NCBI GenBank assembly: GCA_047967505.1
Contig: CM106538.1
DNA: 64,000 nucleotides
Reading direction: 5' to 3' (one strand)
Origin: Dipteris shenzhenensis
Lineage: Eukaryota
Shown here: in pieces, positions 1,563 to 36,170 of the stretch
Layout of the letters: each line of letters starts with the position of its first letter
How positions within the stretch are numbered: the first letter of the stretch is position 1
The notes under the pieces: model-generated
The model's input: only the letters and a program-made list of their open reading frames with translations
What the model was told of the DNA's origin: nothing
Databases searched by the model: none
Translations under genes and position numbers: made by a program

Positions 1563-2870
1563 AGAGGGAGGTGGCAACAGTCGCTTTAACGGGACGGGCG
1601 AGAGTCACATGGAGAGCGGCGTGTAAAGGGGGGGGAAGTAAATATACGCCGACTGGACAGAAAGCAAAGGGCGCTCTGTAAAAAGCCCACTTCTGCGTTT
1701 GGAACTTTGTTGGCTTGTTTTAAAGACACATACAAAACACCCACAACAGGACGATACTCTTCTGCTGATCACACTGTTGTACTCACTACTCTCTCTGTAG
1801 TAAATGTAGGAGTGAGCTCAGTCAGTCAGTGGCAGTCAGCTACTAAAGACCTTTGGACCTTTACAGCTCCATCTTCACTTCTATCTTCTCCTACTCTTCT
1901 CCTTCTTCCTCTTCCTTCTTCTTTGTCGTCTTTCTTTTTCCTACCTCCTCTCCATGCTTCTTATCTTATCACTTCATCTCACTCTGCAATTCTCTCTCTG
2001 CCTCTGCTTGCACCTTTAGCTTCCTTCTTCTTCTACATCTTCAGTGGCAAGTTCTGCCTTCATTTCCCACACTGGCAAGCTCCTCTGTCTGCTTCTCAGT
2101 GTCACTCAGCTAGCTCTTTCCCCTCCATCCCCTGCTTTGGTCTTTGCTTCTCTCTTCTCTTTCTTCCTTAGCTCCCTAGACTAGCTTAGCTAGCTTCCAT
2201 GGCCTTTCCAGTTGCTTAGCTTCTCCTCTCCTTCGCTGCCCTGGCCCCTGCCTCTTTAGAGCTCGCTCAGTACACTGGTTGATTCTTTCAGCTCAGCCAG
2301 GCAGCTCAGTAAAGCTGAGCTCTTGCTGAGCTTTTTTGGCCTGCTTTTTCAGCTCGCATCTTCCACTCCCCCCCCCCCAAAAACCTTCATAGCCCTGCCT
2401 GCCCTCCTCTGCATCCCCCCCCGCCTCTCCCCCTGTACTTTCCCCCTTTGCTAACCTCCCTTTTGGCCGCATTGCTTCAGTATACGGCCCGCTCTTCCTC
2501 GCTTTTCAGCAAGCGTGAATGCAGCATCGATGATCGCTTCCTCTCCTCTGCTTTCTTGCTGCTGTTGCACCCGTTGGGTTCGGAGCTTCCTTTCGACTGC
2601 TCTTCTTCTGCCGCTTGTAGAGAGGTACCTGCATTGTTGACTGCTCAGCTGCCGGGCGTTTCGTTTTTCCGCTCCTCCCTTCAGGGTTCGACTCATCCAT
2701 AAGAATCTATCCGCGAAGAAAGGCCAGAGTAGCTGGTTTCCTGTGCCACCGTTGTTTGCCGAGCTATCTTTGCTGTTTGCTTCAACGACCCGGATATATC
2801 ACGGGACTACCGTCAGTAGCTCGGCAACAAGATCGATTACAAGGCTGGGAAGTGGATAGGTTACAGGCAA

Positions 2871-4402
2871 ATGGGGCTCCGAAATCCAAGACAGGGAACG
2901 CTCATTTTGGTAGCTACACTGTTTTTTTGCTTCGGACTGTACACTTCGAGTTCGTTGCAGTTTAATGACGATGTGCTCGGTCTCATAGTCTTCAAGGCGG
3001 ATTTGGTCGACCCAACGAATGCATTGCGCTCATGGAGCGAAGATGACAACAGCCCTTGCAATTGGACAGGTATAGGCTGTGATGCGCAGAATGGGAGAGT
3101 TACCATAGTTCAACTCGACGGATTGTCTCTTTCAGGGCGCATTGGAAGAGGCTTAGGGAAGCTGGTGTACCTGCGTTCCCTATCCCTCGCCAAAAATAAC
3201 CTTTCAGGCACCATAGATGCAGAGCTAGCTCAGCTGATAGGTCTGAGAAATGTGGATTTCAGCCATAACATGCTATCAGGCCCCATAAATCCTGCGTTTG
3301 GCAACTTGACTTCCCTCAGATCTTTAGATTTCTCTAGCAATTTTCTCTCGGGTGACATCCCTGCCCAGCTTTTTTCCAATTGCAGAAGCTTGCGTGATAT
3401 ATCTCTTGCAAGAAACTCCTTGCAGGGAGCCATCCCGGAGTCTCTGGTTTCGTGCTCGGGCCTGACGAGTCTTAACCTCTCTGAGAACTATTTCGACGGT
3501 GCAATGCCTGTCAAAATGGAAGCTCTCACGGGACTTTCTGTGTTGGATGTATCTTACAACTTACTTTCTGGCACCTTGCCTCCAACTCTTCCGTCGATGT
3601 TGAGCTTGATGGATGTAAGATTTCAGAGCAACAGATTCTCGGGAATGATCCCTGATCAGATTGGTAACTGCATTTGGCTACAGAACCTTGATCTTAGCAA
3701 TAATTTCCTTTCGGGTGGACTGCCTGAATCCATGCAAAGACTGAAGTCACTCTCTACTCTCAACGTTCGAAACAATTTCCTGTATGGCAGCATTCTTCCT
3801 TGGATTGGTGACTTGATTTCGTTAAAGACTCTAATCTTTTCACATAACCTACTCTATGGGCAGATACCTTCAACCATGGGCCTCCTGAAAATGCTTCAGA
3901 GTGTTGATTTCTCAAACAACAGGTTATCAGGACAGATTTCTAGGAGTTTTTCCGCTTGTACACAGCTGCAGAGTCTTGATCTGAGCGAAAATAACTTAAG
4001 CGGTACTATTCCTGAGGGGTTACTCGTTCCTGCCTTGCTCTCTTTGCGACTGTCGAATAACCAGCTTAGTGGCTCACTTCCTAGCGCATTTTACAGTCAA
4101 TGTGGGTCTCTTCAGGTTCTTGATTTATCAAGTAACCAGTTTCAGGGAGCTGTTCCATCAATTGGTACCTGTCTCAAGGTGGAGTATTTCAACATATCCT
4201 CTAATTCTTTCTCTGGAAACATTCCCACTTTCCGCGAAGCCGGCTCCATTATAGTGCTTGACATGAGCCACAATCAGCTAGTTGGGAGCATTCCTACTAG
4301 CCTGGGAGGCGCTATCGAGCTTTTGTTTCTGCTTCTCGATGGAAATAAACTCACTGGATCGATACCAGCTGACCTGGGGAATTGTTCTTACCTAACCAAC
4401 TT
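2871..4402 (+). CDS. IRK-like: LRR receptor-like kinase, IRK/PXC2-like (LRR-VII), exon 1: signal peptide, LRRNT cap, LRRs
   Basis: Hydrophobic signal peptide; FNDDVLGLIVFKADL..W.EDD.SPCNW.GI.C cap typical of IRK/PXC2; many LxxLDLSxNxLSGxIP repeats; donor TT|GTAAGT at 4402/4403. Confidence 0.93.
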
Positions 4403-4821
4403 GTAAGTTCCTTTCAACCTCTACGTTCACTTTCATTACAGAATAGAAGTTTTCGTGTTCTAGATCTCTGTTATTCTGCTTTCTTCTGTTTCATGTTTTC
4501 TGAGCATGTTTGAACCGTGTTCCTGCGAGCACTCTTCGTACATCTCGCATTCTAATGCAGTATAGCCTTGGTTCTTGTAATGGACGACGTTAAAGTAACT
4601 CGTAAATATTAGGTGCTGTGAAAGCATTGTTTGCAGGAAGTAAAATCCAAGGAACTTCATAGCCTTTGCTTTCTTCGGTTCACCTGTTGTCTTGCATTTA
4701 GTGGTGCTCCAAAAATATGACTAACGCGTTTAACAGTCTGAAGTACAGGCACCTCACGGTTTATTATGCCAGGCTTATTTTTCATATCTGATCGTCTAAG
4801 CTTGCAATTTACATTCTGCAG
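4403..4821 (+). other. Phase-2 spliceosomal intron of the LRR-RLK (419 bp)
   Basis: GTAAGT donor at 4403, TTCTGCAG acceptor ending 4821; splicing gives TT+A = Leu and a continuous LRR (GNCSYLTNL-NLSRNKLHGSIP). Confidence 0.9.
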
Positions 4822-6277
4822 AAACTTATCTCGAAACAAGTTACACGGAAGCATTCCTCCAGAGATGGGCAACTTGACGAATCTTCAGGTATTCGATCTG
4901 TCCTACAACAATATATCTGGCGCTATACCCCCAGAGCTGGGTCAGCTTTTAAAGCTTGCAGTATTCAACGTATCGTACAACCAGTTGGAGGGGCCAATCC
5001 CTGGTAATGGCATCTTTGAGAAAGTAAATCAGTCGGCTTTTGTTGGTAACAGTCAACTTTGTGGTGCTGATGTCAATGTCACCTGCCCAAGCACCATGCC
5101 CAAACCTATAGTTCTTCAACCAAACTCTAGCGATGCAAGTCCAGCCGATCAAAACCCATTGGCTATGAGCAAACACAGGCGCATTGTATTGAGTGCCTCA
5201 GCCATTCTAGCAATATCTGCAGCAGCTGTTATATCAGCGGGTGTTGCGATCGTGTTTATCTTAAATGTTTATGCCCAGTCTCTTCCACGGTCGAATTCCC
5301 ACATTCTGGACAGCCTTTCCCAATCTCCAAGCTCAGACTTGCCCATCGGGAAGCTCGTGATGTTCACAAAGAATTCAGATCCAAGGTCAGAGGAATGGGT
5401 GACCAGTGCACATGCCTTGCTAAACAAAGATAGTGAGCTGGGCAGGGGAGGGTTTGGCACTGTTTATAAAGCGGTCCTGGCAGATGGTCGTACAGTAGCT
5501 ATTAAGAAGCTGATGGTCTCCAGCTTAGTGAAATCACAAGAGGATTTCGAGAAGGAAATTCAACTTCTCGGGAAGATAAAGCACCGGAATCTGTTGGGTC
5601 TGCAAGGTTATTATTGGACTCCCCAGCTGCAGCTACTGATCTATGACTTCATTCCCAATGGCAATCTATACAGTTGGCTGCATGAGAGACCTCAGGGAGA
5701 TGCCTCTCTTACCTGGGCGAACAGATTCAAGATAGCTTTGGGGACGGCTCGTGGTTTGGCCCATCTTCACCATTCTTGCAATCCTCAAGTGATACATTAC
5801 AATATGAAATCCAGCAATGTATTACTGGATGAAAACTGCAATCCCAAAATTGCGGACTATGGCCTTGCTAAGCTGCTGCCTATGCTAGATAGGTACCTGA
5901 TGAGCAGCAAGTTTCAGAGTGCATTAGGATATATGGCACCTGAATTCGCCTGTCAGAGCCTAAAGATAAATGAAAAATGCGACGTCTATGGATTTGGAGT
6001 GATGCTACTTGAGCTTGTGACAGGGCGACGGCCAGTGGAGTACATGGAGGATGATGTGGTGATTCTTTGTGACTATGTCCGATCTTTACTTGATGAAGGG
6101 AAAGCCATGAATTGTGTGGATTCAATCTTGCAGGATTATGCCGAAGATGTGCTCCCCGTTATCAAACTGGGTTTGATATGTACCTCTCAAGTGCCTTCCA
6201 ATAGGCCCTCTATGGCAGAGGTGGTCCAAATTCTTGAACTCATCAAGACTCCAGGCAACAGCAGAGATTTGCTTTAA
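4822..6277 (+). CDS. IRK-like: LRR receptor-like kinase, IRK/PXC2-like, exon 2: last LRRs, transmembrane helix, atypical kinase domain (spliced product 995 aa)
   Basis: GNxxLCG cap, TM helix LSASAILAISAAAVISAGVAIVFILNV, GRGGFGTVYK, VAIKKL, HYNMKSSNVLLD, DYGLAKLLPMLDRY, SALGYMAPEFAC, CTSQVPSNRP - motifs I recognise from Arabidopsis IRK/PXC2. 1532+1456 = 2988 nt, stop TAA 6275-6277. Confidence 0.93.
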
Positions 6278-8992: not shown

Positions 8993-10171
8993 TTCATCGA
9001 TAATGTGCACCCTTCTTAGACATAGGCTTAAAAGATTAACCTATGCATAAATTAAAATAATCCATGCACAAACATAGGTCCATGGACCTAAACAAATAGG
9101 AACAAGAGAGCACAAGTGCACATAACCACTAGACTGGCTTCTCTTTAATAGGAAGCTGTGATAATTCCTCATCTAGCTACTTTATTGGGAAATAGTTTAT
9201 GGTCTTTGTTCTTGAGTATTATCTGAGATTTACAACATCTATCGAATACAAAGTTGGCTCATGGCCACCACACTCCGTGCACTTTGCAAGATCTCAATTG
9301 GTGTCTTTGCATTAATTCCAATCCCTTTAACTACTATCACATGTAACTTAGTCACTAATCATGTTAGTTGTTAATAGTCTACTGAATAAATCACTAAGTA
9401 CAATAATCAAGTGTAAGACCAATAACACTAACCACATCAATATCAACATGAAATTACCAAGAATATTGACCATGCAGTATGGCAAATCATATCTTAGGTA
9501 GGTGCCTTCAACCACACCACACAGAGCATCCACTAGGATTTTTGTTGCATTTGACGTGTTCTTATGGTTAGACTTGACTAAGTAATGACATTTGCACTTT
9601 CCGATCCTTGTACTAGTTCTGTCGATTGTACTTCAGTCGATAATTACGTTAGTTAACGGTCAATTGAGCGAATCACAAAGCACAATAGTCAAGCACAATA
9701 ATCAAGCATAAGCCCAATAACACTAATAACATTAGACACCATTTGATGTGCTCTCATGGAATACTTTGCCATAGTTAGACTTGACTAAGTAATTCCGTTT
9801 TTAAGATTGGGAATTTAGGCACGGAATTTGAAGTCAGTTACAAATGTGCTTTGTTCCAATGCAACTATTGGTAATCAGTGTGTTTGTATGAATTTTGTTG
9901 GTTGAATTTGTATGTTATTATTAAAATGCCCCAATGCAAAAGTTGGGTAACTATATGGTCATAGGAACTGTGGGGTTTGGAAATGCTGGGAAAAACTCTT
10001 GGGCATCCATCATTCAAAAGTAATTGTTGGTAATCGGTGCATTTGTCTAGACATGGTGGATTTCAGGGGTGTAGATTATTCTGTGGTAAAAGGATGTTGC
10101 GATCATTTCAAGTTCAGGCACTTAAGCATGGAATTCTTAGGTGTTGTAAATAATGGTAGGCACGTTGGAAA

Positions 10172-10570
10172 TTAGTACACAATGTAAATAGGACTATGGT
10201 CAGTTTAGTATGCTTGAGTCGTTCAAGTGTAACTATTGGGTAATCAACGCGTTTGTCCAGATATGATCAATTTCATATCTATAGATTATTGTTGGGCCTT
10301 TGTTTACTAAGTGCAGATGCCATTGTTCCACCAAGTCCAGCGACTGTAAACGTTTTATGTGAGGATAAGGAAAGTCTATGTTTGTATAGGAGTGATGTAC
10401 CCATTCCTTGGAATGTTGTGATTATTGCAAATTTTTGTCTATTTATATATTTTGCTGGTTGTGCAGTTCTAGTTTCAGTGAGATAAAGTAAGTCAAATGC
10501 TTGGACATTATAACATGCATTTAAATCAGCTGCATGTGTGTTCTTCTTTTGGTATTATAGGCTATTGGAA
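10172..10570 (-). pseudogene. AP-type (EEP) endonuclease domain of the Helentron, internally deleted
   Basis: HAADLNACYNVQAFDLLYLTETR (DxxxLxET), then YEIDHIWTN and QAY*TDHSPIY (IDH and S/TDH motifs). Confidence 0.72.
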
Positions 10571-10689
10571 TTGAAAGGAAGTAGGTGTTTCTTTTTCTTT
10601 TTATTTCAAGCTTGAGGTAATGGAATGTCTATTGATTGCTTGTAGTTTTTGGCATATCGCATTAACCACGTTAGATGAATTTAATAAAT

Positions 10690-12011
10690 TAATGTTTCAG
10701 CCCATATGTCATTGTTTGCAGTTGTAGCCATTTCATCTATTTGCTTCTCGAGTTTTCCCAAGCATTAGCGCTTTGGTTTTTTTAGTTTACAAGGAAGTTG
10801 AATTTTTCTTAAGTCTTAGAAATTTGGTTTGCAGCCCTATAGTAAGCATCTTACTAAGTTTCATTTGATTGTCTATAGTTTCTTCTGAGTTACAGTAAGG
10901 AGTTTAAAGCATGAGTTGTTCTCCGTAGTAATTGATAGGTCCCAATGTTGGTCATAATGTGTGAACCTAATTATTTGAGGTCTTTAAAAAACAAAAGAGT
11001 TTTCTTACTGTATTCTGAAACAAATTCTGCAAGGCATCTTGAGTCAAGTGTTTCTGGTCTTCCTATGTACCGGTCACAAGTGAAATGCACATTATATCAA
11101 TTGAGTTGTCTAGTAGTGTTTGCAATATTTTATTAGGTTTCAAGATGGTGATGTGCCATTGTAACGGCATTGTATTTATAAATTGTGTTGTTCTTGAAGG
11201 ATGGTGAAATGGTAATGAAAGCACTGTGTATACTACTTGTCGTGCTGACATTTGTTGTAGGTTCAAGAATGCAACTCCTATTTTTTAAATGCGATCAACT
11301 GCGTTGTTGTTTTCATCATTTGCTTTTTTTAATACATCATGGAATGCTTTGGTTATTGTGTTGTCTACTTTTGTAAGGTATGATGTATAGTATGCGACTG
11401 CTGCTGCATGTGCATCTAGTATAAATTGAGCATCGATATTTGCAGCCCATAATGGTGCTAGTAATTTGGAAAGTGGGTTTTGTCCAAGCATCTAGTGGCT
11501 TTCTTTTCAAAAACAATGTTGGCCATTTTAAGTTGGCCCTTAAAGATAAGACGTATTCATCCTTAGTAAGTTGCAATTTTATTAACAATTGCTCTAAGCT
11601 TTGCAATGGACTCGAAATTTTATCAATTAACTCTTTATATACTTTAGTGAGCATCATGTTACTGTGAAATAGTTTTTGCTCTAGAGATTGTAGGATAGTT
11701 ATTTTGTCCATTCGCGGTGCCAATGGGAAATGGAACCTGCATATTACTCTTCCCTTTTTCTTGCATCTATGTGTGTGTCTATGCCATTGTGCCCCTCAAG
11801 AAGCAATGTGAGGTTGCATTAATGGATTGGTCAATAAAATTTACGACGACTTCATCTAGTTCTCTATTAGCAAACCATGGTGGAGCTCACTCCCATGATT
11901 TTAAAATTCAGTAGAGAAGTAGGAATCATGTATTTGTGTGAAAAATTATCTATCAGATTTTAGAAGTTTTCTTAATGCTGTGATACAGTGATCTAAATAA
12001 CATGCACATGT
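10690..12011 (-). pseudogene. Helitron2/Helentron HUH Rep domain, degenerate
   Basis: TCACYLDH..FSTEF*NHGSELHHGLL (EFQxRGxxHxH, ~11875-11910); HRHTHRCKK..CRFHFPLAP; PTLFLKRKP; LWAANIDAQFILDAHAAAVAYYTSYLTK (YxxxYxxK, ~11369-11395); QQMSARQVVY..LSLP..SRTTQFINT; NYYGEQLML*TPY. Confidence 0.85.
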
Positions 12012-12368
12012 TGTGAAGAGAGTGGGAGAGAAGTAAGGAGTCTCACTTGCAGCTTTCTCACATACACAATGGGGAAATACACACACAGGTGGAGGCTGAA
12101 AACAGTTTTCCTCTTCTTAGTTGTGAAAGCCAAAAAACTCTCTCTCATACAAAAAGGAATAGATGAATCCTATATGTGGGTCTCAAACCAAACTCAACTA
12201 ACCTAGGTGGCATACTAACTGAGCCACTAACTAGAGTACATAAGGATAGCTATCATCCAACTAATATTCATGGGCAGTGTACCAACCGCATCTGCAGCTA
12301 ACAAGTCAGTGACATAAATGCACAACGGTCACCCTGGCATATCACGAGTGGAGCTCAATATCTCAACA
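12012..12368 (-). repeat. 3' LTR of Copia A (357 bp)
   Basis: Direct repeat of 17236-17590; flanked on + by CTCCCCCT (PPT). Confidence 0.95.
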
Positions 12369-15300
12369 CTCCCCCTCGAGCTCAATCCCAATTCCTGCAC
12401 ACCAAGCAGGTCTCTAAACTTGCACAGCTTCTCTACACCCAATGCCTTCGTGAATGTGTCAGCTACCTAATCCTCTGTGCTGACATAAACTAGATCAATA
12501 AAACCTACTAGAATCTTCTCCTACACATAGTGGTAATGCACCTCAATGTGCTTTGTTCTAGCATGATAGACTGGGTTATTTGCCAAGTGTATACTGCTCA
12601 TGTTGTCACAATAAATGACAACTGGCCCATCTATAGACTGATGCATATCATAAAGCAGCTTATGCAACCAAGCTGCCTCACATGCAGCCATTGCTGCACC
12701 CCTGTATTCAGCCTCTGTGCTCGACAAGGCAACTGTAGGCTGTTTCTTGCTACTCCAAGTTAGTGCAGCACTCCCAAAAGAAAACACATATCCACTGGTA
12801 GATCATCTATCAGAAATACTACCAGCCCAATTAGCATCAGTGTATCCATGCAACTGTATCTGAACACCAGTCTCATAAAATAGTCCATACTGCAATGTTG
12901 TAGACTTCACATACCTCAGTATGTGTCTAGCCGCATGCAAATGTAGTTTCCTTAGAGCCTGCATAAACTGACTTACCAACCCAACAACATAGCTCAAATC
13001 TAGCCTAGTAATAGTCATATTATCAAACTTCCTACTATGCATCTGTACATAGTAGGATCTTCCAGAAGCTCACCTGCATCTGCACTCAGCTTCACATTCT
13101 GCTCCAAAGGAACTGAAATAGGCTTACAGCCTATCATCCCATATTTGGACAACATGTCCAATCCATACTGCCTCTGCAAGAGCCATATCCCACTTGTGGA
13201 TCTAATCACCTCAATGCCCAAGAAGTAATGCAGCTCTCCCAAATCCTTCATCTCAAACCTCTACTTCAATAGCATTTTCACATGAAGGATATCTTCATCA
13301 CTATCACCTGTGATGATTAAATCATCAACATAAATGACAAGCAACATAATACCTTTCTTTGTTTTTCTCACATAAAGTGAGAAATCTGCCGTGGAAATCT
13401 AAAAGCCAATAGTGACAAGATACTATCCTATCTTGTTAGACCATGCTCTAGGTGCTTGCTTCAAGCCATACAAGGCTTTCTTCAACCTACAAACAAACTT
13501 AGGATGAACAGCATGCACATAACCTAGTGGCTACTCCATATAGACCTCTTCTTGCAAATCACCAATGCAAGAAGGCATTCTTTACATCCATCTGATGTAA
13601 ATACCATCCCTTTGATGCAGCCATAGTAATGACTGCTCTTACAGTTGCCATCCTTGCAACTGGACTGAATGTTTCTTCATAATCAATGCCATATTCTGTG
13701 CATGCCCCTTGACAACTAATCTTGCCTTGTATCTACTCATAGAACCATCTGTATTGTGCTTCACCTTATAGACCCACTTGCAACCAATTGCATTCTTGTC
13801 TTTAGGCAAAGGCACCAATTCCCATGTAGCATCCAAGGCATCCATTTCTTCATCCATGGCTTTCTCCCATTTTTCTTTTCCCATGGCTTTCTCAAAAGAA
13901 GTGGGTTCTGGTTCTTGTATCACTTTGACCATATAGGCATAGTGAATGGCTGTAAATCCATCATATTTCAACCTATCCACAAGATACTTGACTCTAGTAG
14001 ACCTGCGCAAGATAGGCTCACTACTAGGTGCTCTCAAAACATCCCTGGTCTTCCTTACTTCAGGTGTAACAACAGAAGGAATACCCAACTCATCATCAAT
14101 GCTATGTTTTGAGCCACTGTATTCACCGTCCACATCAGAGTGACCTGCATTCACATCAACCATGGGCTGATCTACTTTCTCTTTTCCTTTTCGTGATACC
14201 TGCATACCACTATCTGCATTGCTTTGAGGAGATTCTCTTGATCTCAATCTGCCTGTCCATGGCAAAGTATGTGAACCACTGCTAGAGGACACTATAGCTC
14301 CACTAATATTTTGTGATTGCTGCTGTGAGTTCTATGTAGCATTACCATTTTGTGCATCTACATCATCAACCACATTTACTGGTTTATACCAGCTGCTCAT
14401 CTCATCAAAAACAACATCTCTACTTACTGTAAACTTACGAGTAGAAGGGTTATAGATCTATACCCTTTCTGCTACAGAGAATAACCAATAAAGATGCACT
14501 TCTCAGCTTTTGGATCCAACTTGGATCTCAACTCATCTGGCACATGAACATAGGCAATGCAACCAAAAACTTTCAAACGAGAAATATCTAGTTTCCTACC
14601 AGTATACCTCTCCTCTGGAGTCATGCCATGTATTGCTGCAGTGGGAGTCTTGTTCGTTATGTAGACTGTTGTAGCAACTGCTTCAGCCCAATAAAAATCT
14701 GGCAGGTCTTTTTCATTGAGCATGGCATGAGATACCTCTGCAATATGCCTGTTTTTCCTTTCTGCAAGTCCATTTTGCTGTGGGGTATGATTGCATGATT
14801 ATTGTTGCTTTATGCCATGCTCTTGCAGGAACCTTGCAAACTCATTTGAGAGATCCTCTCCCCCTCCATCTGACCTTAGGCATTTTATTTGCAACCCTGT
14901 TTCTTTTTCAACCATAGCTATAAAAGCTTTGAAATTCCCAAGCACTTCACTTTTCTTCTTCATAAAATACACCCAAACTTTTCTGTTGTAGTCATCAATA
15001 AAAGTGACAAAATAATGACAGCCTCCAATAGATGCAGCTTTAGTAGTCCACACATCATAGTGGATTAATTCCAATGGCCTCTTACTCTTTGAACATGTCT
15101 AGGAAATGGTTTCCTTCCCTATTTTCCAAATTGACAAGCTTCACATATCTTATGCATTTCTGCAACCTTGAACTTGGGCGATCTTGCAACAATATTTTGG
15201 GCTTGCATTAATTTAAGTCGCTGTACATTAACATGACCAATGCGTTTATGCCAGATATCAATATCTGCAACTACACCGGTCCCATGTGCAAACATTGCTG

Positions 15301-16690
15301 CACTCAATTCAGGCATGTCCATATCCAACGTAAACATCCTGCCCTTCTTCTTCCCTTTTGCTATCAAGCAACCTTTATTTTTCATATCCTCAACAAAGCA
15401 TCCATGAGGATTAAATCTGACCTGCAAGCCTTGCTCAACCATTTGACCAACAGAAACCAGGCTCTTGGTGATGTTCGGAACATGAAATACATCAGACAGG
15501 TATTTCTTTTTCCCATCCTGCATAGACAAAGGAATTTTACCAATTTGCACAATAGAATGTGCAGTATGATCACCAGTCTCCACAAATCCTGGTTTTTCCA
15601 TTTTCCTTGCATCTTGCATCCATTCTGCATGACCTGCCATGTGGTGTGATGCACCTGAGTCAACATACCACACATCATAGCTTTCTTCTACACTTGTCAC
15701 TGAATTGGTCATGTGCTACACCATAAACAAATGCTCATTTCTGTCATCACCTTGTCTACTAGAGGATGCATAATTGCCTTGCTGCAATTTTCCATTCATA
15801 ATGTCATTCTACTTTTTGTAGCAGTCTTTAGCCATATGACCCATTTTACCACATAGTAGCATTCAACATTGCTGTTTACATTTTGGCCTCTCTGCCATCC
15901 ACCATGGCCTCTTTGGCTCCCCCTGCCTCTAAGGTTACCACGTCCTCCTCCATAGGACTGGTTTTCTTGAATTGGCTGCATATTATGATTTCTCCCACGG
16001 CCTCCAGATCGACCTGCTCTACCTCTGCCTCTACCTCTTCCAGCATTTGAGTAGAAGATAGTTTCTTTTGAAGTTCCTCCTGAAGAAGATGCACCACCAT
16101 TTCTCTGCTCTTCAGAAATTAGGAGAGCAATCAACTCCTCAAAATCAGGAAATTTTTCATGGACGGCAATGGATGTCCAGAACAATGCATAATCCTTTCC
16201 TAGACCACCATTCAAGGTCACAGAAACTAAATCATCATCTTCCACTGGCGACCCAATGGAAGCAACTGCATCTGCAATCTTCTTCACCTTCATGTGGTAG
16301 TCATTGATGCCTCATATTTGCTCTCTGCACATTGTGTAACTCCTACTTGAGCTGCATTTTCCTGGCTTGCATATTTGTGTTGTACATTTTTGCCAAAGTA
16401 TCCCATGCCTCCTTTGGCGTGCTTGCATCTTGAATATGCACAATCATAGAATCTGAAATACTGATAGACAGCCAGTACATAACTTTTCTGGCTCTCTCAT
16501 GCCAGGCTTTAAATGCTTGCATTTCGTGTTGATTGGGAACATTAGGAAGAACTGGTTCTTCTTCTTTTCCTACAATGAACTCCCAATAGCCTTTTCCCAT
16601 AAGGAAATTCGTCATTCTAAACTTCCATGCTTGGAAGTTGTTCTTGTCAAGCTTTTCAGTGACAATCTGTGAAAGAGAGTCAGACGCCAT
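12329..16690 (-). pseudogene. Copia A gag-pol pseudogene
   Basis: MASDSLSQIVTEKLDKNNFQAWKF gag; WYVDSGASHHM protease; WHKRIGH..CEACQFGK and LRSDGGGE integrase; CKWVYKVK..YKARLV and KDLGELHYFLGIEV RT; SSTEAEY..YCDN..HARTKHIEVHYH RNase H; many stops and frameshifts. Confidence 0.95.
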
Positions 16691-17223
16691 TACAGAACAC
16701 TGCAAAATATTGTCACTGCAAAAAAACGCAACTTCTGCCTCACAAGGCAAATCTGCAAAGCTGACGAAAGTGGTATTTGACCACACAGTCGCTTCCTAGT
16801 GATGATTTTGCATCAACAGGCAATAAGAATGATACTGTCACTCCCAATATCTCTGCGCATAAGCATACGATGCAATTTCTGTGGCAACTTTTCACAGACC
16901 TGCAGAATAATAGTTGCACAGCCAAAACAGGCCACTTTTCTGAGTGCCTGCGAAAAAACTTCCCCCACCAAAACGGGCCTCGAAACGGCCTCAAATCAAA
17001 AAAATAATGTCACTGAGGGCTTCGTCCCGGCCCGCAGCATATATTACCCTCTTGCCGCACCACGAAGGGCGTCTCAATTTGAGACAGTGTACTCTTGCAC
17101 TTTCCGGCTGTGCTACTTGTGTAGAGATTTGCTCCCAAACTCGAAAAAGGAAAGTAATACTGATCCTCTTACCAAGACACTGCGAACTTGGTTTGCTTCC
17201 TTGAGCTCCTTATCATGAACTGA

Positions 17224-17235
17224 GCTCTGATACCA
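17224..17235 (-). other. Primer-binding site (tRNA-iMet) of Copia A
   Basis: GCTCTGATACCA on +, i.e. TGGTATCAGAGC abutting the 5' LTR. Confidence 0.93.
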
Positions 17236-17590
17236 TGTGAAGAGAGTGGGAGAGAAGTAAGGAGTCTCACTTGTAGCTTTCTCACATACACAATGGGGGA
17301 ATACACACACAGGTGGAGGCTGAAAACAAATTTCCTCTTCTTAGTTGTGAAAGCCAAAAAACTCTCTCATACAAAAAGGAATAGATGAACCCTATATGTG
17401 GGTCTCAAACCAAACTCAACTAACCTAGGTGGCATACTAACTGAGCCACTAACTAGAGTACATAAGGATAGCTGTCATCCAGCTATTATTCATGGGCGGT
17501 GTACCAACCGCATCTGCAGCTAACAAGTCAATGACATAAATGCACAACGGTCACCCTGGCATATCACGAGTAGAGCTCGATATCTCAACA
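17236..17590 (-). repeat. 5' LTR of Copia A (355 bp)
   Basis: About 12 substitutions and one 2-bp indel versus 12012-12368 by manual comparison. Confidence 0.95.
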
Positions 17591-18300
17591 CGTCACATGA
17601 TCATCACGTATTTTTTATGTGACACAAGACTTGATCACGAAGCACAATATCAATTGCTTGATCTTGCTGAATGCCTAGCTCAATTGGTTGATATATGTAT
17701 GCTTCAACGACATTACCTTGACCTTTAGTTAAAGCTTTTTTGGAAGTGTACTGCGTGGAATTTGAAGTTGAGGCAGTGCACTTATCTTAATTATTGGTTC
17801 AAAATGAGGAGCATGCTCAAAAGTATTATCATAAAAAATTTGCAATGGATCTGGCATATATTTCTCTCCAAATTGCAGGTACACCTTGTTTTACAATTGA
17901 CCACACATATATTGTTTCCTGAAGATGCTTAGAGATACAAAAAACAGCAAAATGATCACCTCACAAATCCCCATCGACGATTGAAAGCTCATTTGTGCAA
18001 AGTATTCGTTAGTATACACTCCATGGTGTTTGTACATGAAATCCAAAGGTACATATGTTTGCAAGAAAGCTTACTACTTCGTTACAATTAATATGCAAAG
18101 ATGACACAAAGCTCACAACTGCTACAGTGCGAAGTCCTTTAGATGTCATGGGTCCATGCATTAAATATGCTACTGTATCAAATAAGAAATCACCTACTAT
18201 GTACTCATAATTATTTACATGACATAGACCTTGTTGATGCAAGATATTGTCAACATGTTTTTTGCTCAATGACATGCTATTTTTTCTTTCCTTTATCTCT
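17591..18300 (-). pseudogene. Helentron 5' part: OTU-like cysteine protease domain, start of a second OTU-like copy, junction into Rep
   Basis: VDNILHQQGLCHVNN..VGDFLFDTVAYL (GDCLF-like, ~18178-18197), L*GDHFAVF (WGD, ~17953-17966), HFEPI (~17793-17807); then AIDIVLRDQVLCHIKN joined to IRDDHVT, which continues as CACY left of Copia A. Confidence 0.68.
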
Positions 18301-19449
18301 TTCTCCAATTTTACAAAATTTAGAAAAGAAGAAACTGTAAGCAACACAAAATTTGGAAAGACAATGCGCTCTTTTGTTTTTCTGGGGGATTTTTTTTTCT
18401 TTTTTTTCTCTTTTCATATATCTTTTCCAATCATAGATTTGTTTAGATAGAATGTTTGTAAACAACTTTTTTTGTTTTTATATGAACTTGTAAAATCACT
18501 TTATGGAGCAGTGTATGAATTTGCTTTTATTGTTTTATTTAGCCATCAGTTTGTGAGCTTGCAAAATGTTCGCTCCATTTGCCAAAGTGTTTGTAGCTAC
18601 ATCATGGGTTTAAGTAGAATCTTCTATGGAAGGTCCTTCTCTACCTTGAAACCTTGCGATACTTCGTTATTCGCAAAGACTCCCGATCGGTGTGTAAGCA
18701 GTCAATAAACCTGAGCAATTGTTTGTTAAAACTCCCTCTCAATTTTCTTGAAGTATCGATCAACTGGTTTGTCTATACCAACCAAGTTTGAAATGCAAGG
18801 ATCCCTTATGTTTATTTGCCATCCTCTTGTCTAATTCTTGCGACCACATGATGTGACAATTCCAAGTTGAATGTGCTTCTTGCAACGCATGCAACTATAT
18901 ATATTTTTGCCTATTCTCTATAAATCGGTCAGTACTTTGCAAAGTAAACATGCAATGAAAAATAGACAAGCAACTTGCATGAATGTCCATTCACCAGACA
19001 CCTGTGGAAATAGTAATCTAAAATAAATCAGCACCTTGCCCTTTTTTCTATGGCCTCTAACTATTAATTGCAGACTCTATCATCACTTACATAATCAATG
19101 CTGCTTTCTTGACCTGTGTAATTTTGGCAAACTTCAGTCTCCCCATTGTATTATAGCCGGATTGGTTACTGGAGTTGCTATTGAATAGCTTGCAAAATAT
19201 TTCTTCTTTGTGGTATACTTCCTAGTTTCCACTTTGTTAGTGATCCGCGGTCACTGTTGTTGTATATTCGGAACGCACTTAACTATTGAAATCCCATAAA
19301 AGCCAAAGCCTCAATAATCCAATTGACATCATTCGATGCCATTAAGAGACCATGGAAGTAGCATTCGGATTTAGGACATGCAATCTCTTTTTGTAAACCA
19401 CACAACTAAGTAAAAGCACCACCATCCAATGTGGAACAACAACCAAATA

Positions 19450-21459
19450 GTGACTAGCAAGACAATGGATCCCCTAACCATGAAACACCACTATGAGCCT
19501 CTATACTTGGTGTGGGTCTGTCATATGACATAGTAGCTTCACTTGTTCTTTGAAGATAAAGAGCTGCTTGTCATGCAATCATCCAATTCTTTGATGTAGG
19601 TACATCCTTAAATCTTAATAACATGAAACCATAGTACAGTAGATTGGGTCTATATAGGAAGCCAAATATGTCAACATCTCTAAAATTATTGTGTATTGAC
19701 TAGCCTTTGCACATCCCAAAAGCAAAGAAGGTATCAATCTCTCTATGTTTTCATCACTTTTGATAGCACATCACTCCATTGCACCCTAATATTTAGAAAT
19801 CTTGTACAATGAGTACAAATTTTTCTCTAAAATCCTAGATCCAACCACTAATCTGGATCCAACCACTAATCTGCATCAAGTACAGATTGTATACGAGACT
19901 GCCATAAGTTCATGCTGAAACACTGAGTCTCCTAAAGTTGTGCTATGGCTAAACCTGATGATGTCGATTGCACTGGGGCAGGACTGCACTCATGTATAAA
20001 TATCCTAGTCCTGAGGAATGATCTACTGATCGAAAGAGGTAGTGATCACTAGATCTAGTGACAGTGCAATGCAGCAGGAGTAAGTCAATGTTGAGATGTC
20101 CAGAAGACTAATTCTTGCTAATCTGTACTGCTGAAGGAAGCTGTGTCCAAAGGATGTGATAGGCTCCATGTCAAAGGTGAAAGCATCACTGATGGATGCT
20201 GGAATGAAATCACTTAAAGAGCTGAATCCACTAGAGCATATATCTCTGCATGCAGCAAAAGATGTGAGTGTCTCGTACTGAGGACTTACCTACTGCTATT
20301 GAATAACTGCATGATCTTTGAACTCTTGATGTGTATCTGCATCTGATGTGATAGTAGATGGAGTCGAATCCATGCATGAAAGTGATGGCTATACATCACT
20401 AGAATTAGGCTATATTGATATGAGTGGGCCTGCCTCTTACTAAGGGCTTACCATCAAATGTGCCTCATGTTGAGAGCTTACCGAGGAATGTGCCTCATGG
20501 TGAGGGCTTACTGTCGAATGTGCCTCGTCCCGAGGGCTTATCGAAAAGTGTGCCTCATGCTGAGGGCTTACCATCAAATGTGCATGATCAAAAGGTGTGG
20601 GCTGATCCATGCTAAACATGTGGAACATCTACGTCCAATTGCTCAAGACTAATGAGTCTCAAGACTAATGAGGCTTGATCTGCATCATAGACTGGTAATA
20701 CCCCTGTGGCATGAATGGTCGAAGTAGGTTCTCTTTCTAGAGTCATGACTAGTGTGTCATCAACTATCTAATGTGGATAACTCCATGCTGGAGGCAATCT
20801 GGTGCTCTGTGCAAGAGGTTTACCCGTGTACCAACAAGAGTGTCTACTCATGAGAACACTATATGAAAGCTTCCACTCGGGGGCTTATGCTAAAATGTCA
20901 ACACCAAGTCATGTGAGAATGTGTTTATGCCAAAGATTGATCCTGTAAGAAAGCAATGATAACTGAGTGTCTGCATAGCCAAGAGGTTGTACAAGGCTGA
21001 TGTATGTGTGCAAGAACCAATGCCAAGAAATTGTCAACAAACGTGATTGTACATGGGTGGCATGTGTGTGCTGTGTGCAACAATACTAAATCTGAGAGAG
21101 ATCACACAAGTGTCACACTGATAGATGGAACTTCCAAATGCCAAGAGTAATGAACTAGTCTCATATGTGTTAAAATGAATCATCTTGATGATAGAACCGA
21201 TGGGACTAACATCAGAGGGAACTAATCAAGTAATTTGGCAATGGCTTACTTGGCTTGATCTCCTCTATGATTTTGCTAGTCTATAGCTAGACTGCAAGTC
21301 AAAGCGTCAAATGCAACAAAAGAATTTTATCTTAATTCATTTTATGTGTTGGATACACTGCAGTGGATCAAGAGGTGGTTTTGATGATGAGGATTTGATT
21401 ATTATGACCCACTTGGAAAGTCAAACTGCAAATTTGAGGTACTCATCGCATAGAGCATG
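19450..21459 (-). mobile_element. Highly degenerate Copia pol relic (left half of an old host element)
   Basis: Weak minus-strand motifs: VPQICSLTFQV (protease VPxLxxNLLSV-like, ~21400-21445), TITFVDNF (integrase YFxTFIDDF-like, ~21025-21050), S/T/D-rich linker; shares a TGCCTC..AGGGCT motif with 38305-38427. Confidence 0.5.
20431..20580. repeat. Minisatellite, five 30-bp units
   Basis: Units start at 20431, 20461, 20491, 20521, 20551: TGCCTC-N6-AG(G/A)GCTTA-N6-A(A/G)TG. Confidence 0.92.
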
Positions 21460-22871: not shown

Positions 22872-23223
22872 TGTGAAGATAGTGGGAGAGAGGGAAGGAG
22901 TCTCACTTGCAGCATTCTCACATACATAATGGGGGAATACACACAAAGGTGGAGGCTGAAAATAGTTTTCCTCTTCTTAGTTGTGAAAGCCAAAAAAACT
23001 CTAGTACAAAGAAATAGAAGAACCCTATATGTGGGTCTCAAACCAAACTCAACTAACTAAGGTGGCATACTAACTGAGCCACGAACTAGTGTGGATAAGG
23101 ATAGCTGTCATCCAGCTATTATTCGTGGGCGGTGTACCAACCGCATCTGTAGCTAACAAGTCGGTGACATAAATGCACAACGGTCACCCTGGCATATCGC
23201 GAGTGGAGCTCGATATCTCAACA
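22872..23223 (-). repeat. 3' LTR of Copia B
   Basis: TGTGAAG...TCTCAACA, direct repeat of 28168-28519. Confidence 0.96.
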
Positions 23224-26200
23224 CTCCCCCTCGAGCTCAATCCCAATTCCTGCACACCAAGCAGGTCTCTGAACTTGCGCAGCTTCTCTGCGCCCAATGC
23301 CTTCATGAATATGTCAGCTACCTGATCCTCTGTGCTGACATAAACTAGATCAATAAGACCTACTAAAACCTTCTCCCGCACATAGTGATAATGCACCTCA
23401 ATGTGCTTTGTTCTAGCATGAAAGACTGGGTTATTTGCCAAGTGTATACTGCTCATGTTGTCACAATAAATGACAACTGGCCCATCTGTAGACTGATGCA
23501 TATCATAGAGTAGCTTATGCAACCAAGCTACCTCACATGCAGCCATTGCTGCACCCCTGTACTCAGCCTCTGTGCTTGACAAGGCAACTGTAGGCTGTTT
23601 CTTGCTGCTCTAAGTGACTGCAGCACTCCCAAAAGAGAACACATATCCACTGGTAAATCATCTATCAGAAATACTACCAGCCCAATCAACATCAGTGTAT
23701 CCATGCAACTATATCTGAACCCCAGCCTCATAAAATAGTCCATACTGCAATGTGGACTTCACATACCTGAGTATGTGTCTAGCCGCATCCAAATGCGGTT
23801 TCCTTGGAGCGTGCATAAACTGACTTACCAACCCAATAGCATAGCTCAAATCTGGCCTGGTAATAGTCATGTAAATCAAACTTCCTACTATGCATATGTA
23901 CATAGTAGGGTCTTCCAGAAGCTCACCTGCATCTGCGCTCAGCTTCACATTCTGCTCCAAAGGAACTGAAATAGGCTTACAGCATCCCATATTTGGACAG
24001 CATGTCCAGTCCATACTGCCTCTGCAAGAGCTGTATCCCACTTGGTGATCTAATCACCTCAATGCTCAAGAAATAACGCAGCTCTCCCAAATCCTTCATC
24101 TCAAACTTCTGCCTCAATAGCATTTTCACATGAAGGATATCTTCATCACTATCACCTGTGATGATCAAATCATCAACATAAATGACAAGCAGCATAATCC
24201 CTTTCTCTGTTTTTCTCACATAGAGGGAGAAATCTGCCTTGGAATTCTGAAAGCCAATAGTGACAAGTTACTGTCCTATCTTGTCAGACCATGCTCTAGG
24301 TGCTTGCTTCAAGCCATACAAGGCTTTCTTCAACCTGCAAACAAACTCAGGATGAATAGCATGAACATAACCTGCTGGCTGCTAAATAAAGACCTCTTCT
24401 TGCAAATCACCATGCAAGAAGGCATTCTTTACATCCATCTGATGTAAAGACCATCCCTTTGATGCAGCCATAGCAATGGCTACTCTTACGGTTGCCATCC
24501 TTGCAACCGGGCTGAAAGTTTCTTCATAATCAATGCCATATGTCTGTGCATGCCCCTTGACAACTAATCTTGCCTTGTATCTATTCACAGAACCATCTGC
24601 ATTGTGCTTGATCTTATAAACCCACTTACAGTCAATTCCATTCTTGTCTTTAGGCAAAGGCACCAATTCCCATGTAGCATTTACATCCAAGGCATCCATT
24701 TCTTCATCCATGGCTTTCTCCCATTTTTCATTTCCCATGGCTTGCTCAAAAGAAGTGGGTTCTGGTTCCTGTATCACTTTGACCATATAGGCATAGTGAA
24801 TGGCTATAAATCCATCATATTTCAGCCTATCCACAGGATACCTCACCCTGGTAGACCTGCGCAAAATAGGCTCACTTCCAGGTGCTCTCAAAACATCCCT
24901 GGTCTTCCTTACTCCAGGTGTAACAACAGAAGGAATACCCAACTCATCATCAATGCTCTGCTCTGAGCCACTGGATTCACCATCCACATAAGAGTGACCT
25001 GCATTCACACCAAACATGGGCTGATCTACCTTCTCTTTTCCTTTTCGTGATACCTGCGTACCACTATCTGCATTGCTTTGAGGAGATTCTCCTGATCTCA
25101 ATCTACCTGTCCATGGTGAAGTATGTGAACCACTGCTAGAGGACACTGTAGGTCCACTGATATTTTGTGATTGCTGCTGTGAATTTTGTGCAGCATTACC
25201 ATTTTGTGCATCTACATCAATCATCACATTTACTGGTTTATACCAGCTTCTCATCTCATCAAAAACAACATCTTTGCTCACTGTGAACTTACGTGTAGAA
25301 GAGTTATAGCATCTATACCCTTTCTGCTGCAGAGAATAACCAATAAAGATGCACTTCTCAGCCTGTGGATCCAACTTGGACCTCAACTCATCTGGCACAT
25401 GAACATAGGCAATGCAACCAAAAATTTTCAAATGAGAAATGTCTGGTTTCCTACCAGTATACATCTCCTCTGGCGTCATGCCATGTATTGCTACAGTGGG
25501 AGTCCTGTTCATTATATAAATTGCTGTAGCAACTGCTTCAGCCCAATAATAATCTGGTAGACCTTTTTCATTCAGCATGGCCCGAGATACCTCTCCAATA
25601 TGCCTGTTTTTCCTTTCTGCAATTCCATTTTGCTGTGGGGTATGACTGCATGACTATTGCTGCTTTATGCCATGCTCCTGCAGGAACCTTGCAAACTCAT
25701 TTGAGGTACTCTCCCCCTCCATCTGACCTTAGGCATTTTATTTGCAGGCCTGTTTCTTTTTCAACCATAGCTTTAAAAGCTTTGAAGTGCCCAAACACTT
25801 CACTTTTCTTTTTCATAAAATACACCCAAAGTTTTCTGCTGAAGTCATCAATAAATGTGACAAAATAGTGACAGCCTCCAATAGATGCAGCTTTAGTAGT
25901 CCACACATCAGAGTGGATTAATTCCAATGGCTTTTTACTCTCTTGAACATGCTTAGGAAATGGTTTCCTTGCCTGTTTTCCAAATTGACAGGCTTCACAC
26001 ACCTTATGCATTTCTACAACCTTGAATTTAGGCAATCCTGCAACAATATTTTGGGCCTGTATTGATTTAAGTCGTTGTACATTAACATGACCAATGCGTT
26101 TATGCCAGATATCAATATCTGCAACTACACCGGTCCCATGTGCAAACATTGCTGCACTCAATTCAGGCATGTCCGCATCCAATGTAAACATCCTGCCTTT

Positions 26201-27623
26201 CTTCTTTCCTTTTGCTATCAAGCGACCATTATTTTTCATATCCTCAACAAAACATCCATGAGTATTGAATCTGACCTGCAAGCCCTGCTCAACCATTTGA
26301 CCAACAGAAACCAGGTTCTTGGTGATGTTCGGGACATGAAATACACCAGACAAGTATTTCTTTTTCCCATCCTGCATAGACAAAGGAATTTTGCCAATCT
26401 GCACAATAGGATGTGCAGTATCATCACCAGTCTCCACAAATCCTCGTTTTTCCATTTTCCTTGCATCCTGCATCCTGCATCCATTCAGCATGACCTGTCA
26501 TGTGGTTTGATGCACCTGAGTCAACATACCACACATCATTGCTTTCTTTTGCACTTGTCACAGAATTTGTCATATGCTGTACCATAAACAAATGTTCATT
26601 TCTGTCATCACCCTGTCTACTAGAGGATGCATAATTGCCTTGCTGCAATTTTCCATTCATAATGTAATTCTGCTTTTTGTAGCAGTCTTTAGCCATATGC
26701 CCCATTTTACCCATTTTGAGCAGTCTTTAGCCATATGACCCATTTTACCCTAAAGCAGTCTTTAGCCATATGACCCATTTTGCCACAATAGTAGAATTCA
26801 ACATTGCTATTTGCATTTTGGCCTCTCTGCCATCCACCACGTCCTCTTTGGCTCCCCCTGCCTCTAGAGTTACCACGTCCTCCTGCATAGGACTGGTTTT
26901 CTTGAGTTTGCTGCATATTCTGATTTCTACCATGGCCTCCAGATCGGCCTCCTCTACCTCTGCCTCTACCCCTTCCAGCATTTGAGTAGAAGACAGTTTC
27001 TTTTGAGGTTCCTCCTGAAGAAGATGCACCACCATTTCTCTGCTCTTCAGAAATTAGAAGAGCAATCAACTCCTCAAAATCAGGAAATTTTTCACGGATG
27101 GCAATGGATGTCCGGAACTGTGCATAATCCTTTCCTAGACCATTCAAGGTCACAGAAACTAAATCGTCATCATCCACTGGCGACCCAATGGAAGCAAGTG
27201 CATCCGCAATTTTCTCCACCTTCATGTGGTAGTCATTGATGCTCATATTTTCTCTCTACACACATTGTGCAGCTCCTGCTTGAGCTGCATTTTCCTAGCC
27301 TGCGTATTTGTGCTGTACATTTTAGCCAAAGTATCCCATGCCACCTTTGGCGTACTTGCATCCTGAATATGCACAATCATTGAATCTGAAATACTGATAG
27401 ACAGCCAGTACATAACTTTTCTGGCTCTCTCATGCCATCCTTTAAATGCCTGCATTTCCTGTTGATTGGGAACTTTAGGAAGAACTGGGTCTTCTTCATT
27501 TCCTGTAATGAACTCCCAGTAGCCTTTTCCCATAAGGAAATTCGTCATTCTAAACTTCCATGCTTGGAAGTTGTTCTTGTCAAGCTTTTCAGTGACAATC
27601 TGTGAAAGAGAATCAAACGCCAT
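23184..27623 (-). pseudogene. Copia B gag-pol pseudogene
   Basis: Same domain series as Copia A (gag, WYVDSGASNHM, LIHSDVW, YVDDLIITG, HARTKHIEVHYH) broken into ORFs 27243-27623, 26707-27246, 25697-26491, 24382-25578, 23977-24219, 23709-24041, 23184-23582. Confidence 0.95.
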
Positions 27624-28167
27624 TACAGAACACTACAAAATATTATGTCACTGCAAAAAACACAGCTTTTGCCTCCCAAGGGCAAATCTACAAACCTGAC
27701 GAAAGTGGTTTTTTGACCACACAGTCACTTCCTAGTGACGATTTTGCATCAACAGGCAATAAGGATGATTCTGCAACTCCCAATATCTCTACACATAGGC
27801 ATACGATGCAATTTCTGCGGCAACTTTTCACCGACCTGCAGAACAGTGGTCGCACAGCAAAAACAGAGCCTTTTTCTGAGTGCCTGCGGAGAACTTCCGC
27901 CTCCAAAACGGGCCCCGAAATGACCTCGAATCAAAAAAATAAAGTCACCAAGGGCTTTGCCCTTACTTGCAGCATATAATGCCCTCTCGCCACACTGCAA
28001 AGGGCATCTCAATCTGAGACAGTGCACTCTTGCACTTCCAGCTGTGCTACCTATAGAGATTTGCTCCCAAACTCGAAAAAGGAAAGCAACACTAGTCCTC
28101 TTACTGGGACACTGCGAACTTGGTTTGCTTTCTTGAGCTCCTTACCACGAACAAGGCTCTGATACCA

Positions 28168-28519
28168 TGTGAAGATAGTGGGAGAGAGGGAAGGAGTCTC
28201 ACTTGCAGCTTTCTCACATACATAATGGGGGAATACACACAAAGGTGGAGGCTAAAAACAGTTTTCCTCTTCTTAGTTGTGAAAGCCAAAAAAACTCTAG
28301 TACAAAGAAATAGAAGAATCCTATATGTGGGTCTCAAACCAAACTCAACTAACTAAGGTGGCATACTAACTGAGCCACGAACTAGTGTAGATAAGGATAG
28401 CTGTCATCCAGCTATTATTCATGGGCGGTGTACCAACCGCATCTGTAGCTAACAAGTCGGTGACATAAATGCACAATGGTCACCCTGGCATATCGCGAGT
28501 GGAGCTCGATATCTCAACA
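28168..28519 (-). repeat. 5' LTR of Copia B
   Basis: About 7 substitutions versus 22872-23223 by manual comparison. Confidence 0.96.
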
Positions 28520-35843: not shown

Positions 35844-36170
35844 TGTGACTTGGAGGAGTCAAATAGATTGGATGAATTTCAAGGGAGGAATTCACGGCAG
35901 ATGGTTGTCAGAGACATTGGTCGGAGCATAGTTGCATGTAGAAGTGTTGAGACATGGATCGGGTACCTCCTCCACAAGTCCAAGTGGTGATGTATGTGTG
36001 TTAGGGGGATTATACATGTGTTATTGTAGTAGGGACCATCGTGTTAATAATGTGCTTAGAATTGTCCCCCTTGAGCATGGGAATGTGCCGATGGTGCAGA
36101 CGGTTTGTCAATCGGAGGTCACGGTGGATTGTTATGAGCAAATTAGTGCAAAAAGGGGCCCACATGGGGG

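Follow-up and report, generated by a model that had tools for sequence, protein, structure and literature searches.

Remnants of a probable Helentron-type transposon, interrupted by a Copia retrotransposon, in the land plant Dipteris shenzhenensis

The 64,000-nucleotide stretch of Dipteris shenzhenensis DNA analysed here (contig CM106538.1 of assembly GCA_047967505.1, in the following called the window) very probably carries on its minus strand a dead copy of a Helentron-type rolling-circle transposon (HLE2 group) that stems from one old insertion. An OTU-like cysteine protease, an HUH Rep core, a linker and an EEP/AP-endonuclease follow one another on this strand in that order, each as a remnant with recognizable homology, and we infer that these parts arrived as one element. 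The features by which Helentrons and the HLE2 group are recognized are present as remnants, namely an HUH Rep with a two-tyrosine motif, a C-terminal EEP endonuclease and an accessory OTU domain, which is frequent in such elements though not obligatory; the Pif1-like helicase that is fused after Rep in Helentrons is absent from the window copy. A preliminary description of this region, made from the letters alone, had listed motifs of OTU, Rep and endonuclease, and all of these are found in place in the three-frame translation of the minus strand and score above chance. The parts of the architecture which it proposed were thus correct, but it overlooked that the helicase is missing.

The Rep core and the retrotransposon nested in it

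The HUH Rep core lies at 12011-11040 on the minus strand and was recognized by profile alignment as well as by phmmer, hmmsearch and tblastn. A query of 142 amino acids taken from one frame (11063-11491, one stop read as X) was searched exhaustively with phmmer. It matches 926 proteins at E ≤ 1e-3, of which 192 remain at E ≤ 1e-10, and the best match has an E value of 3.9e-35 and 53% identity; the query stretch, ~150 residues past the Pfam domain Helitron_like_N, carries the two-tyrosine motif. For the core as a whole we built a profile of 353 positions from the collected homologues, which runs from ahead of the HUH motif to the end of Rep, and aligned it with the DNA by means of a frameshift-aware aligner written for this analysis. 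The resulting alignment scores 277 bits and covers 312 of the 353 profile positions in nine blocks with three in-frame stops. In addition, hmmsearch places a Rep match of 72.7 bits at 11481-11792, and tblastn with the Cryptomeria japonica protein XP_059070801.1 (P0229) hits the Rep region with an E value of 3e-53.

The Rep motifs can be read as EF-stop-NHGSELHH at about 11890, HRHTHRC..CRFHFP at about 11780-11720 (CRFHFP itself at about 11740-11720), WAANIDAQF..YYTSYLTK at about 11450-11369 and, in the C-terminal part of Rep after YYTSYLTK, QQMSARQ at about 11250. The two-tyrosine motif YYTSYLTK is intact (11392-11369, with the Tyr codons at 11392-11390 and 11380-11378). The first His of the HUH motif is lost, as the position reads L-H-H (11885-11877) where the Cryptomeria relative has H-D-H. 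The region is a remnant without a working HUH site.

Nested inside Rep is a Copia long terminal repeat (LTR) retrotransposon at 12012-17590 (minus strand), which is foreign to the Helentron. Its LTRs (12012-12368 and 17236-17590) are direct repeats that are 94-96% alike, its open reading frames (ORFs) match RVT_2, Pol_BBD and gag_pre-integrs in Pfam, and its 5' LTR is adjoined by TGGTATCAGA, which we take to be the primer-binding site. The last Rep codons ahead of the Copia element, KIRDDHV at 17592-17612 on the minus strand, run directly on into TCACYLDH at 12011, and the motif DDHV/TCACY accordingly spans the junction (17592/12011). With the Copia element excised, the sequence across the junction agrees with the family consensus 'lirsdPvtcaryfdy' and also with 'LIKKDPVTCARYY' of P0229. 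Since the joined KIRDDHV/TCACYLDH reproduces the consensus of the Rep family, the two flanks of the Copia element were once contiguous. The preliminary description had advised setting the block 12012-17590 aside, and once this block, which proved to be the Copia element, is removed, the reading across the junction is indeed that of the Rep consensus. The LTRs have diverged by 4-6% since the Copia element inserted into the Helentron.

Upstream of the Copia element, a profile of the Rep N-terminus stays at null level (19.2 and 19.0 bits as compared to 19.6-19.8 bits for shuffled sequences). The residues EYFAQMSFQSS..LLFFVSLS had tentatively been read as the N-terminal part of Rep in an alignment of the joined sequence; this assignment was dropped because the OTU profile of the clade described below fits these residues far better.

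The OTU, linker and endonuclease remnants and the gaps between them

The remnant of the OTU-like cysteine protease is located at 18194-17789 on the minus strand. It comprises the Cys box GDFLFDTVAY (18194-18165), whose catalytic Cys has become Phe, a middle block that reads RW and then GDHFAVFCISKHLQETIYVWSIVKQ (17976-17886) and is interrupted at the W by a frameshift or stop, and the His box HFEPII (17806-17789); the short motifs within them are GDFLFD at about 18190, a stop and GDHFAVF at about 17960, and HFEP at about 17800. The decisive profile was made from the OTU remnants of ten related loci only, the window being excluded, and was scored on 17592-18591. It reaches 61.9 bits, as compared to a mean of 18.0 bits (standard deviation 2.7, maximum 27.0) in 300 shuffles, none of which scored as high, and to 26.0 bits in the next best region of the window. 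The alignment falls on GDFLFDTVAY, (R)W/GDHFAVFCISKHLQETIYVWS and HFEPII, that is, on the very motifs of the preliminary description. The wording of the OTU is shared with the related locus L044, which has WGDTCAIFCLANYLHRPIHVWS where the window has a stop followed by GDHFAVFCISKHLQETIYVWS, and is also near that of the loci L038 and L072. With a profile of 20 OTU homologues the score is 26.5 bits, a value that 2 of 200 shuffles also reached.

From the end of the OTU to the start of the Rep core, relatives such as L044 measure about 1.95 kb as compared to about 0.2 kb in the window. Because this gap is so much shrunken, DUF6570 and the N-terminus of Rep, together about 1.75 kb, must have been deleted, and immediately ahead of the Copia element a DUF6570 profile does not rise above the null level. 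A weak DUF6570-like signal is seen at 18356-18893 on the minus strand (25.3 bits versus a mean of 17.2 and a standard deviation of 2.8 in 200 shuffles, two of which scored as high). It is doubtful, however, since in the relatives the OTU lies upstream of DUF6570 and the order would thus be the opposite one.

On the other side of Rep, the linker that connects it with the helicase in relatives is found at 10983-10643 (minus strand; RPQIIRF.., NYYGEQLML, EKQIDEM). It is readable at 10983-10708, scores 50.7 bits with a linker profile (200 shuffles: mean 17.4, standard deviation 2.8, maximum 29.9), ends in a possible 11-residue scrap from just after the Walker A site of the helicase (10675-10643), and extends from Rep to about 30 bp short of the endonuclease part. 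A helicase profile gives no signal anywhere in the window. The helicase is found in 45 of the collected homologues and in most of the related loci, and for this reason we conclude that about 1.75 kb encoding it were deleted from the window copy; in the relatives the end of the endonuclease sits 2.6-3.3 kb past the Rep core, as opposed to 0.87 kb here.

The EEP/AP-endonuclease remnant (10613-10175, minus strand) consists of the profile blocks 10542-10459 (..DLLYLTETR..), 10401-10345, 10340-10251 (..EIDHIWTN) and 10204-10175 (TDHSPIYIVY, then a stop), with the motifs DLLYLTET at about 10490, IDHIWTN at about 10270 and TDHSPI at about 10200. The blocks are collinear with the profile, of which positions 132-200, about 70 residues that make up the catalytic centre with the GDFN region, are deleted. 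In the frameshift-aware alignment the remnant scores 60.1 bits, whereas 100 dinucleotide shuffles average 24.6 bits (standard deviation 3.7, maximum 35.6) and none of the other 127 unshuffled segments of 1 kb in the window exceeds 32.4 bits; a profile of 76 endonuclease sequences yields 63.7 bits. When a profile of 27 Helentron endonuclease domains is run with hmmsearch over the six-frame translation of the window, the top two matches (6.9 and 6.4 bits) are those at 10417-10605 and 10245-10355, the next best scoring -2.9 bits. The stop directly after the C-terminal SDH-type motif fits the end of a Helentron polyprotein, and Pfam (E ≤ 10) detects neither a reverse transcriptase nor any other domain beyond the endonuclease in the three frames of the minus strand across 9001-12016. 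A reverse transcriptase following the endonuclease in the same ORF, as in a long interspersed nuclear element (LINE), is thus not present.

Downstream of the endonuclease remnant, in a non-coding tail (9340-9800, minus strand) that may be part of the element, about 295 bp are duplicated in tandem; the core repeat of 42 nt occurs at 9396-9437 and 9691-9732 with 86% likeness. Excerpts of the study of Thomas et al. (PMC4067079) state that animal Helentrons often carry internal tandem repeats. The sequence GTGCACTTGTGCTCTCTTGTT at 9121-9101 was picked by eye as a candidate 3' end. In two subfamilies of the related loci the 3' end is a short hairpin with TTGTT or CTTGTT after it, and neither in L007 nor in L043 was an inverted 5' copy of the 18-mer from this end found. 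Helentrons are characterized by insertion into TT, short subterminal inverted repeats and a 3' hairpin, canonical Helitron1 elements by 5'-TC...CTRR-3' ends and insertion between A and T. A second copy of the element was not found within the window.

Relatives, classification and genomic setting

The long homologues of Rep display the domain order DUF6570, sometimes OTU or Peptidase_C48, Helitron_like_N, PIF1 and Exo_endo_phos, and this composition of the full-length members of the family sustains the Helentron-type identity that had been proposed in the preliminary description. In a tree of 70 proteins, not one of the 70 combines at least 1100 residues past the Rep core with lack of an endonuclease match. 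A profile search for Rep relatives gave 333 proteins, the best 120 of which were described from precomputed Pfam content counted by hand. Among these best 120, about 34 have Exo_endo_phos families and 9 have OTU, and of the about 35 that bear the name of an organism, 34 are from marine invertebrates or a rotifer and one is from Cryptomeria japonica. This Cryptomeria protein, P0229, is the closest named relative among the matches listed, with 49% identity to the 142-residue query and 43% identity to the window Rep across 305 columns of the Rep core. It is an intact protein of 1502 amino acids with Helitron_like_N and PIF1 and with two near-identical full-length paralogues. After the helicase, its residues 1221-1302 show a weak match to DUF223 (E 0.0024, below the Pfam cutoff), a domain of RPA-like fold that often accompanies plant Helitrons. 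By phmmer, its helicase matches that of Helraiser (7lcc; E 6e-11) whereas its Rep has no detectable match there.

A scan of metagenome contigs yielded 80 related loci. In a FastTree phylogeny (LG+gamma, 353 core columns) of 190 tips, from which sequences with fewer than 230 informative columns or with more than 90% identity to a kept row had been dropped, the window falls into a clade of 33 tips (support 0.974) together with P0229, three unnamed proteins and 28 metagenome loci. Midpoint rooting, which need not recover the true root, puts this clade outside all other tips. Endonuclease-bearing members are spread throughout the tree. We examined 62 of the loci (L001-L047 and 15 chosen by contig series, tree membership being confirmed for part of them), which collapse into 40 groups at an identity of at least 95%. 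They represent a multi-copy family of OTU-DUF6570-Rep-helicase-endonuclease build with 75-93% DNA identity. An endonuclease (>50 bits) follows Rep and helicase in 23 of the 25 distinct groups with at least 3 kb of downstream sequence (reverse-complement controls at most 40.1 bits), and an OTU remnant (>25.5 bits) precedes DUF6570 and Rep in 12 of the 25 groups with at least 3 kb of upstream sequence (controls at most 24.2 bits). The preliminary description had held that independent insertions would be indicated if OTU and endonuclease never occurred together with this Rep in other copies; among its closest relatives they do. Flanking ORFs match Phi_1 at L036 and L009 and DUF1421 at L026 (3 of 9 ORFs tested), and since we take both to be plant families, the metagenome contigs are probably plant DNA. 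As a check on the host, the Copia, Ty3 and receptor-kinase proteins of the window were compared with the metagenome loci by tblastn, without a match.

To our knowledge, Helitron1 elements have no endonuclease. The window copy does not conform to canonical Helitron1/HLE1 in this respect, as its endonuclease remnant is collinear with Rep. The occurrence of endonucleases across the whole tree, which includes no HLE1 reference, and the failure of the P0229 Rep to match Helraiser point indirectly to HLE2 rather than HLE1. Judged against excerpts of the HELIANO study (PMC11417382, 2024) and of Thomas et al. 2014 (PMC4067079), in the latter of which the structure of Helentrons and their carriage of OTU are described, the window copy is like Helentrons, in particular those of HLE2 subgroup b of the former, in its two-tyrosine HUH Rep, C-terminal EEP endonuclease and OTU and in the strand and order of these parts. 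The relatives of the window copy also carry a Pif1 helicase and DUF6570, whereas the copy itself lacks the helicase, the Rep N-terminus and the centre of the endonuclease. Moreover, Helentrons have been described mostly from animals, fungi and oomycetes, whereas the window clade is plant-hosted. Within this clade, the Cryptomeria protein XP_059070801.1 differs from the broken window copy in being an intact Rep-helicase. The bat Helitron1 element Helraiser (7lcc) has a Pif1-type helicase and the HUH rolling-circle logic in common with the element, but its Rep is dissimilar by phmmer. HelenSM92 of Sphagnum magellanicum is also an HLE2-type Rep-helicase of a land plant; according to the passages on it in PMC11417382, it has captured a GIY-YIG domain, as opposed to the OTU and EEP endonuclease of the window clade. 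Other excerpts of that paper report HLE2 in 13 of 74 land-plant species and count land plants as hosts of subgroup b, in which endonucleases are frequent. The view of the preliminary description that this is a plant Helentron is supported, but it overstated the novelty: the element is a further member of a published plant Helentron-like kind and its novelty is modest.

Elsewhere in the window Pfam recognizes a receptor kinase gene, a further Copia element and a Ty3 gag. The leucine-rich repeat (LRR) receptor-like kinase gene at 2820-6277 (plus strand) consists of two long ORFs, probably split by one intron, 2820-4406 with LRRNT_2 and LRRs and 4742-6277 with LRRs and the kinase domain. The second Copia-type element occupies about 23000-28400 on the minus strand, with RVT_2 and SH3_retrovirus at 24382-25653, integrase and gag_pre-integrs at 25697-26497 and gag with a zinc knuckle at 26707-27255, and a Ty3/gypsy-type gag ORF with Retrotrans_gag and Ty3_capsid lies at 35092-35907, likewise on the minus strand. 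A direct repeat of 33 nt (20431-20463 and 20551-20583) is 91% alike.

Origin and decay of the copy, and alternative explanations

The ancestral element would have encoded on the minus strand a polyprotein of OTU protease, DUF6570, HUH Rep, Pif1 helicase and AP endonuclease. Going by what is known of Helitrons and Helentrons, Rep of the intact element would nick one DNA strand through its HUH and two-tyrosine centre, the helicase would peel the nicked strand off, and the freed strand would move as a circle and enter a new site, a peel-and-paste type of rolling-circle transposition. What the endonuclease and the OTU protease of Helentrons contribute is debated. Three internal deletions, from the OTU to the HUH motif (about 1.75 kb), of the helicase (about 1.75 kb) and of the endonuclease centre (about 70 residues), have shortened the element, the first His of HUH and the catalytic Cys of the OTU are replaced, and stops and frameshifts occur throughout. 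The layers would have been laid down in the order Helentron, deletions, and insertion of Copia into Rep. To judge from its sequence, the window copy is functionless and incapable of transposition.

Several of our results weigh against reading the region as a Helentron. Helicase, DUF6570 and Rep N-terminus all escape detection, so that a domain which defines Helentrons is absent from the copy; the preliminary description regarded the element as the best candidate for a novel system in the window, but this helicase-less fossil with its several internal deletions is not a working one. Pfam searches of the window DNA, both as ORF pieces and as read-through three-frame translations (E ≤ 10), recovered no Helitron_like_N, OTU or Exo_endo_phos, and word-based protein searches with two pieces of the window gave no match. 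The significance of the endonuclease and of the OTU rests on a custom aligner with ad hoc penalties, the controls for which are shuffles and the rest of the window, and a first OTU profile made from six sequences was not significant (20.8 bits, a score that 18 of 200 shuffles also reached). Nor can the endonuclease be assigned to the clade of the Rep, as its median identity of 28% to the clade loci and of 24% to other Helentrons does not discriminate between the two. The predicted protein of P0229, the closest named plant relative, has neither endonuclease nor OTU. The 190-tip tree holds only relatives that were found starting from the window Rep, has no Helitron1/HLE1 reference and is rooted at its midpoint. 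Finally, the termini and the target site of the copy are undefined, and a perfect 5-bp target duplication was not found around the nested Copia element, whose minus-strand flanks read TGACG and ACATG.

But could the three remnants not be chance neighbours, that is, a piece of a Helitron Rep, an endonuclease left by the 5' portion of a LINE, and a fragment of an unrelated OTU gene? All three are short and damaged, Rep and endonuclease are not separated by the helicase that one would expect there, and the endonuclease lacks a phylogenetic tie to the Rep clade in a comparison made with Helentron endonucleases. However, all parts lie on one strand in Helentron order, this order recurs in the relatives, and the OTU has a wording peculiar to OTUs from the clade to which the Rep belongs. 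Moreover, no reverse transcriptase or other domain follows the endonuclease, which stops right past its last motif and which the linker approaches to within about 30 bp. We therefore regard independent insertions as very improbable. Just as improbable, and if anything a little more so, is that a canonical plant Helitron (Helitron1/HLE1) captured fragments of an endonuclease and an OTU. Canonical Helitrons do dominate flowering-plant genomes and are known to capture gene fragments, and our tree was calculated without an HLE1 outgroup. Flowering-plant Helitron proteins are, however, very numerous in public databases and yet not one is among the about 35 organism-named proteins of the best 120 of 333, every relative of sufficient length that we examined has the Helentron build, and P0229 matches Helraiser in the helicase only and not in Rep. 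In favour of a captured OTU in a canonical Helitron is also that excerpts of the HELIANO paper (PMC11417382) record OTU from HLE1 as well as from HLE2.

The explanation that competes most seriously concerns the state in which the Helentron arrived, namely that it transposed already shortened, as a non-autonomous derivative of OTU, partial Rep and partial endonuclease that was mobilised by intact relatives. The three internal deletions are clean and leave flanking coding parts that can be aligned, and in animals, according to excerpts of PMC4067079, Helentrons are known to give rise to deletion derivatives. Yet the window contains no further copy in which these deletions recur, and the stops and frameshifts are signs of a long neutral decay which is also able to yield deletions in place. 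We consider arrival in shortened form rather unlikely, though not negligibly so.

The interest of this copy in its own surroundings is that of a dated layer, with Helentron, deletions and Copia insertion following upon one another, and for the annotation of transposons it shows that standard Pfam scans miss such copies entirely. Beyond this, Helentron-type elements had been held to be missing from land plants until 2024, and the fossil described here provides, together with its relatives, independent evidence for a plant-hosted clade in which the build is complete, with OTU, Rep, helicase and endonuclease, and which includes intact-looking Rep-helicase genes in a conifer. Tentatively, and as a possibility rather than as the expected outcome, we suggest that an old clade of Helentrons resident in land plants unites the window copy with the Cryptomeria proteins and the multi-copy loci from metagenomes, and that this clade has an OTU-DUF6570-Rep-helicase-endonuclease build of its own and a position outside all sampled animal Helentrons. 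If this is true, Helentrons would have persisted in plants by vertical descent for a very long time, as opposed to having come in by recent horizontal transfer from animals. The finding is relevant to the choice between long residence and horizontal arrival of Helentrons in plants.

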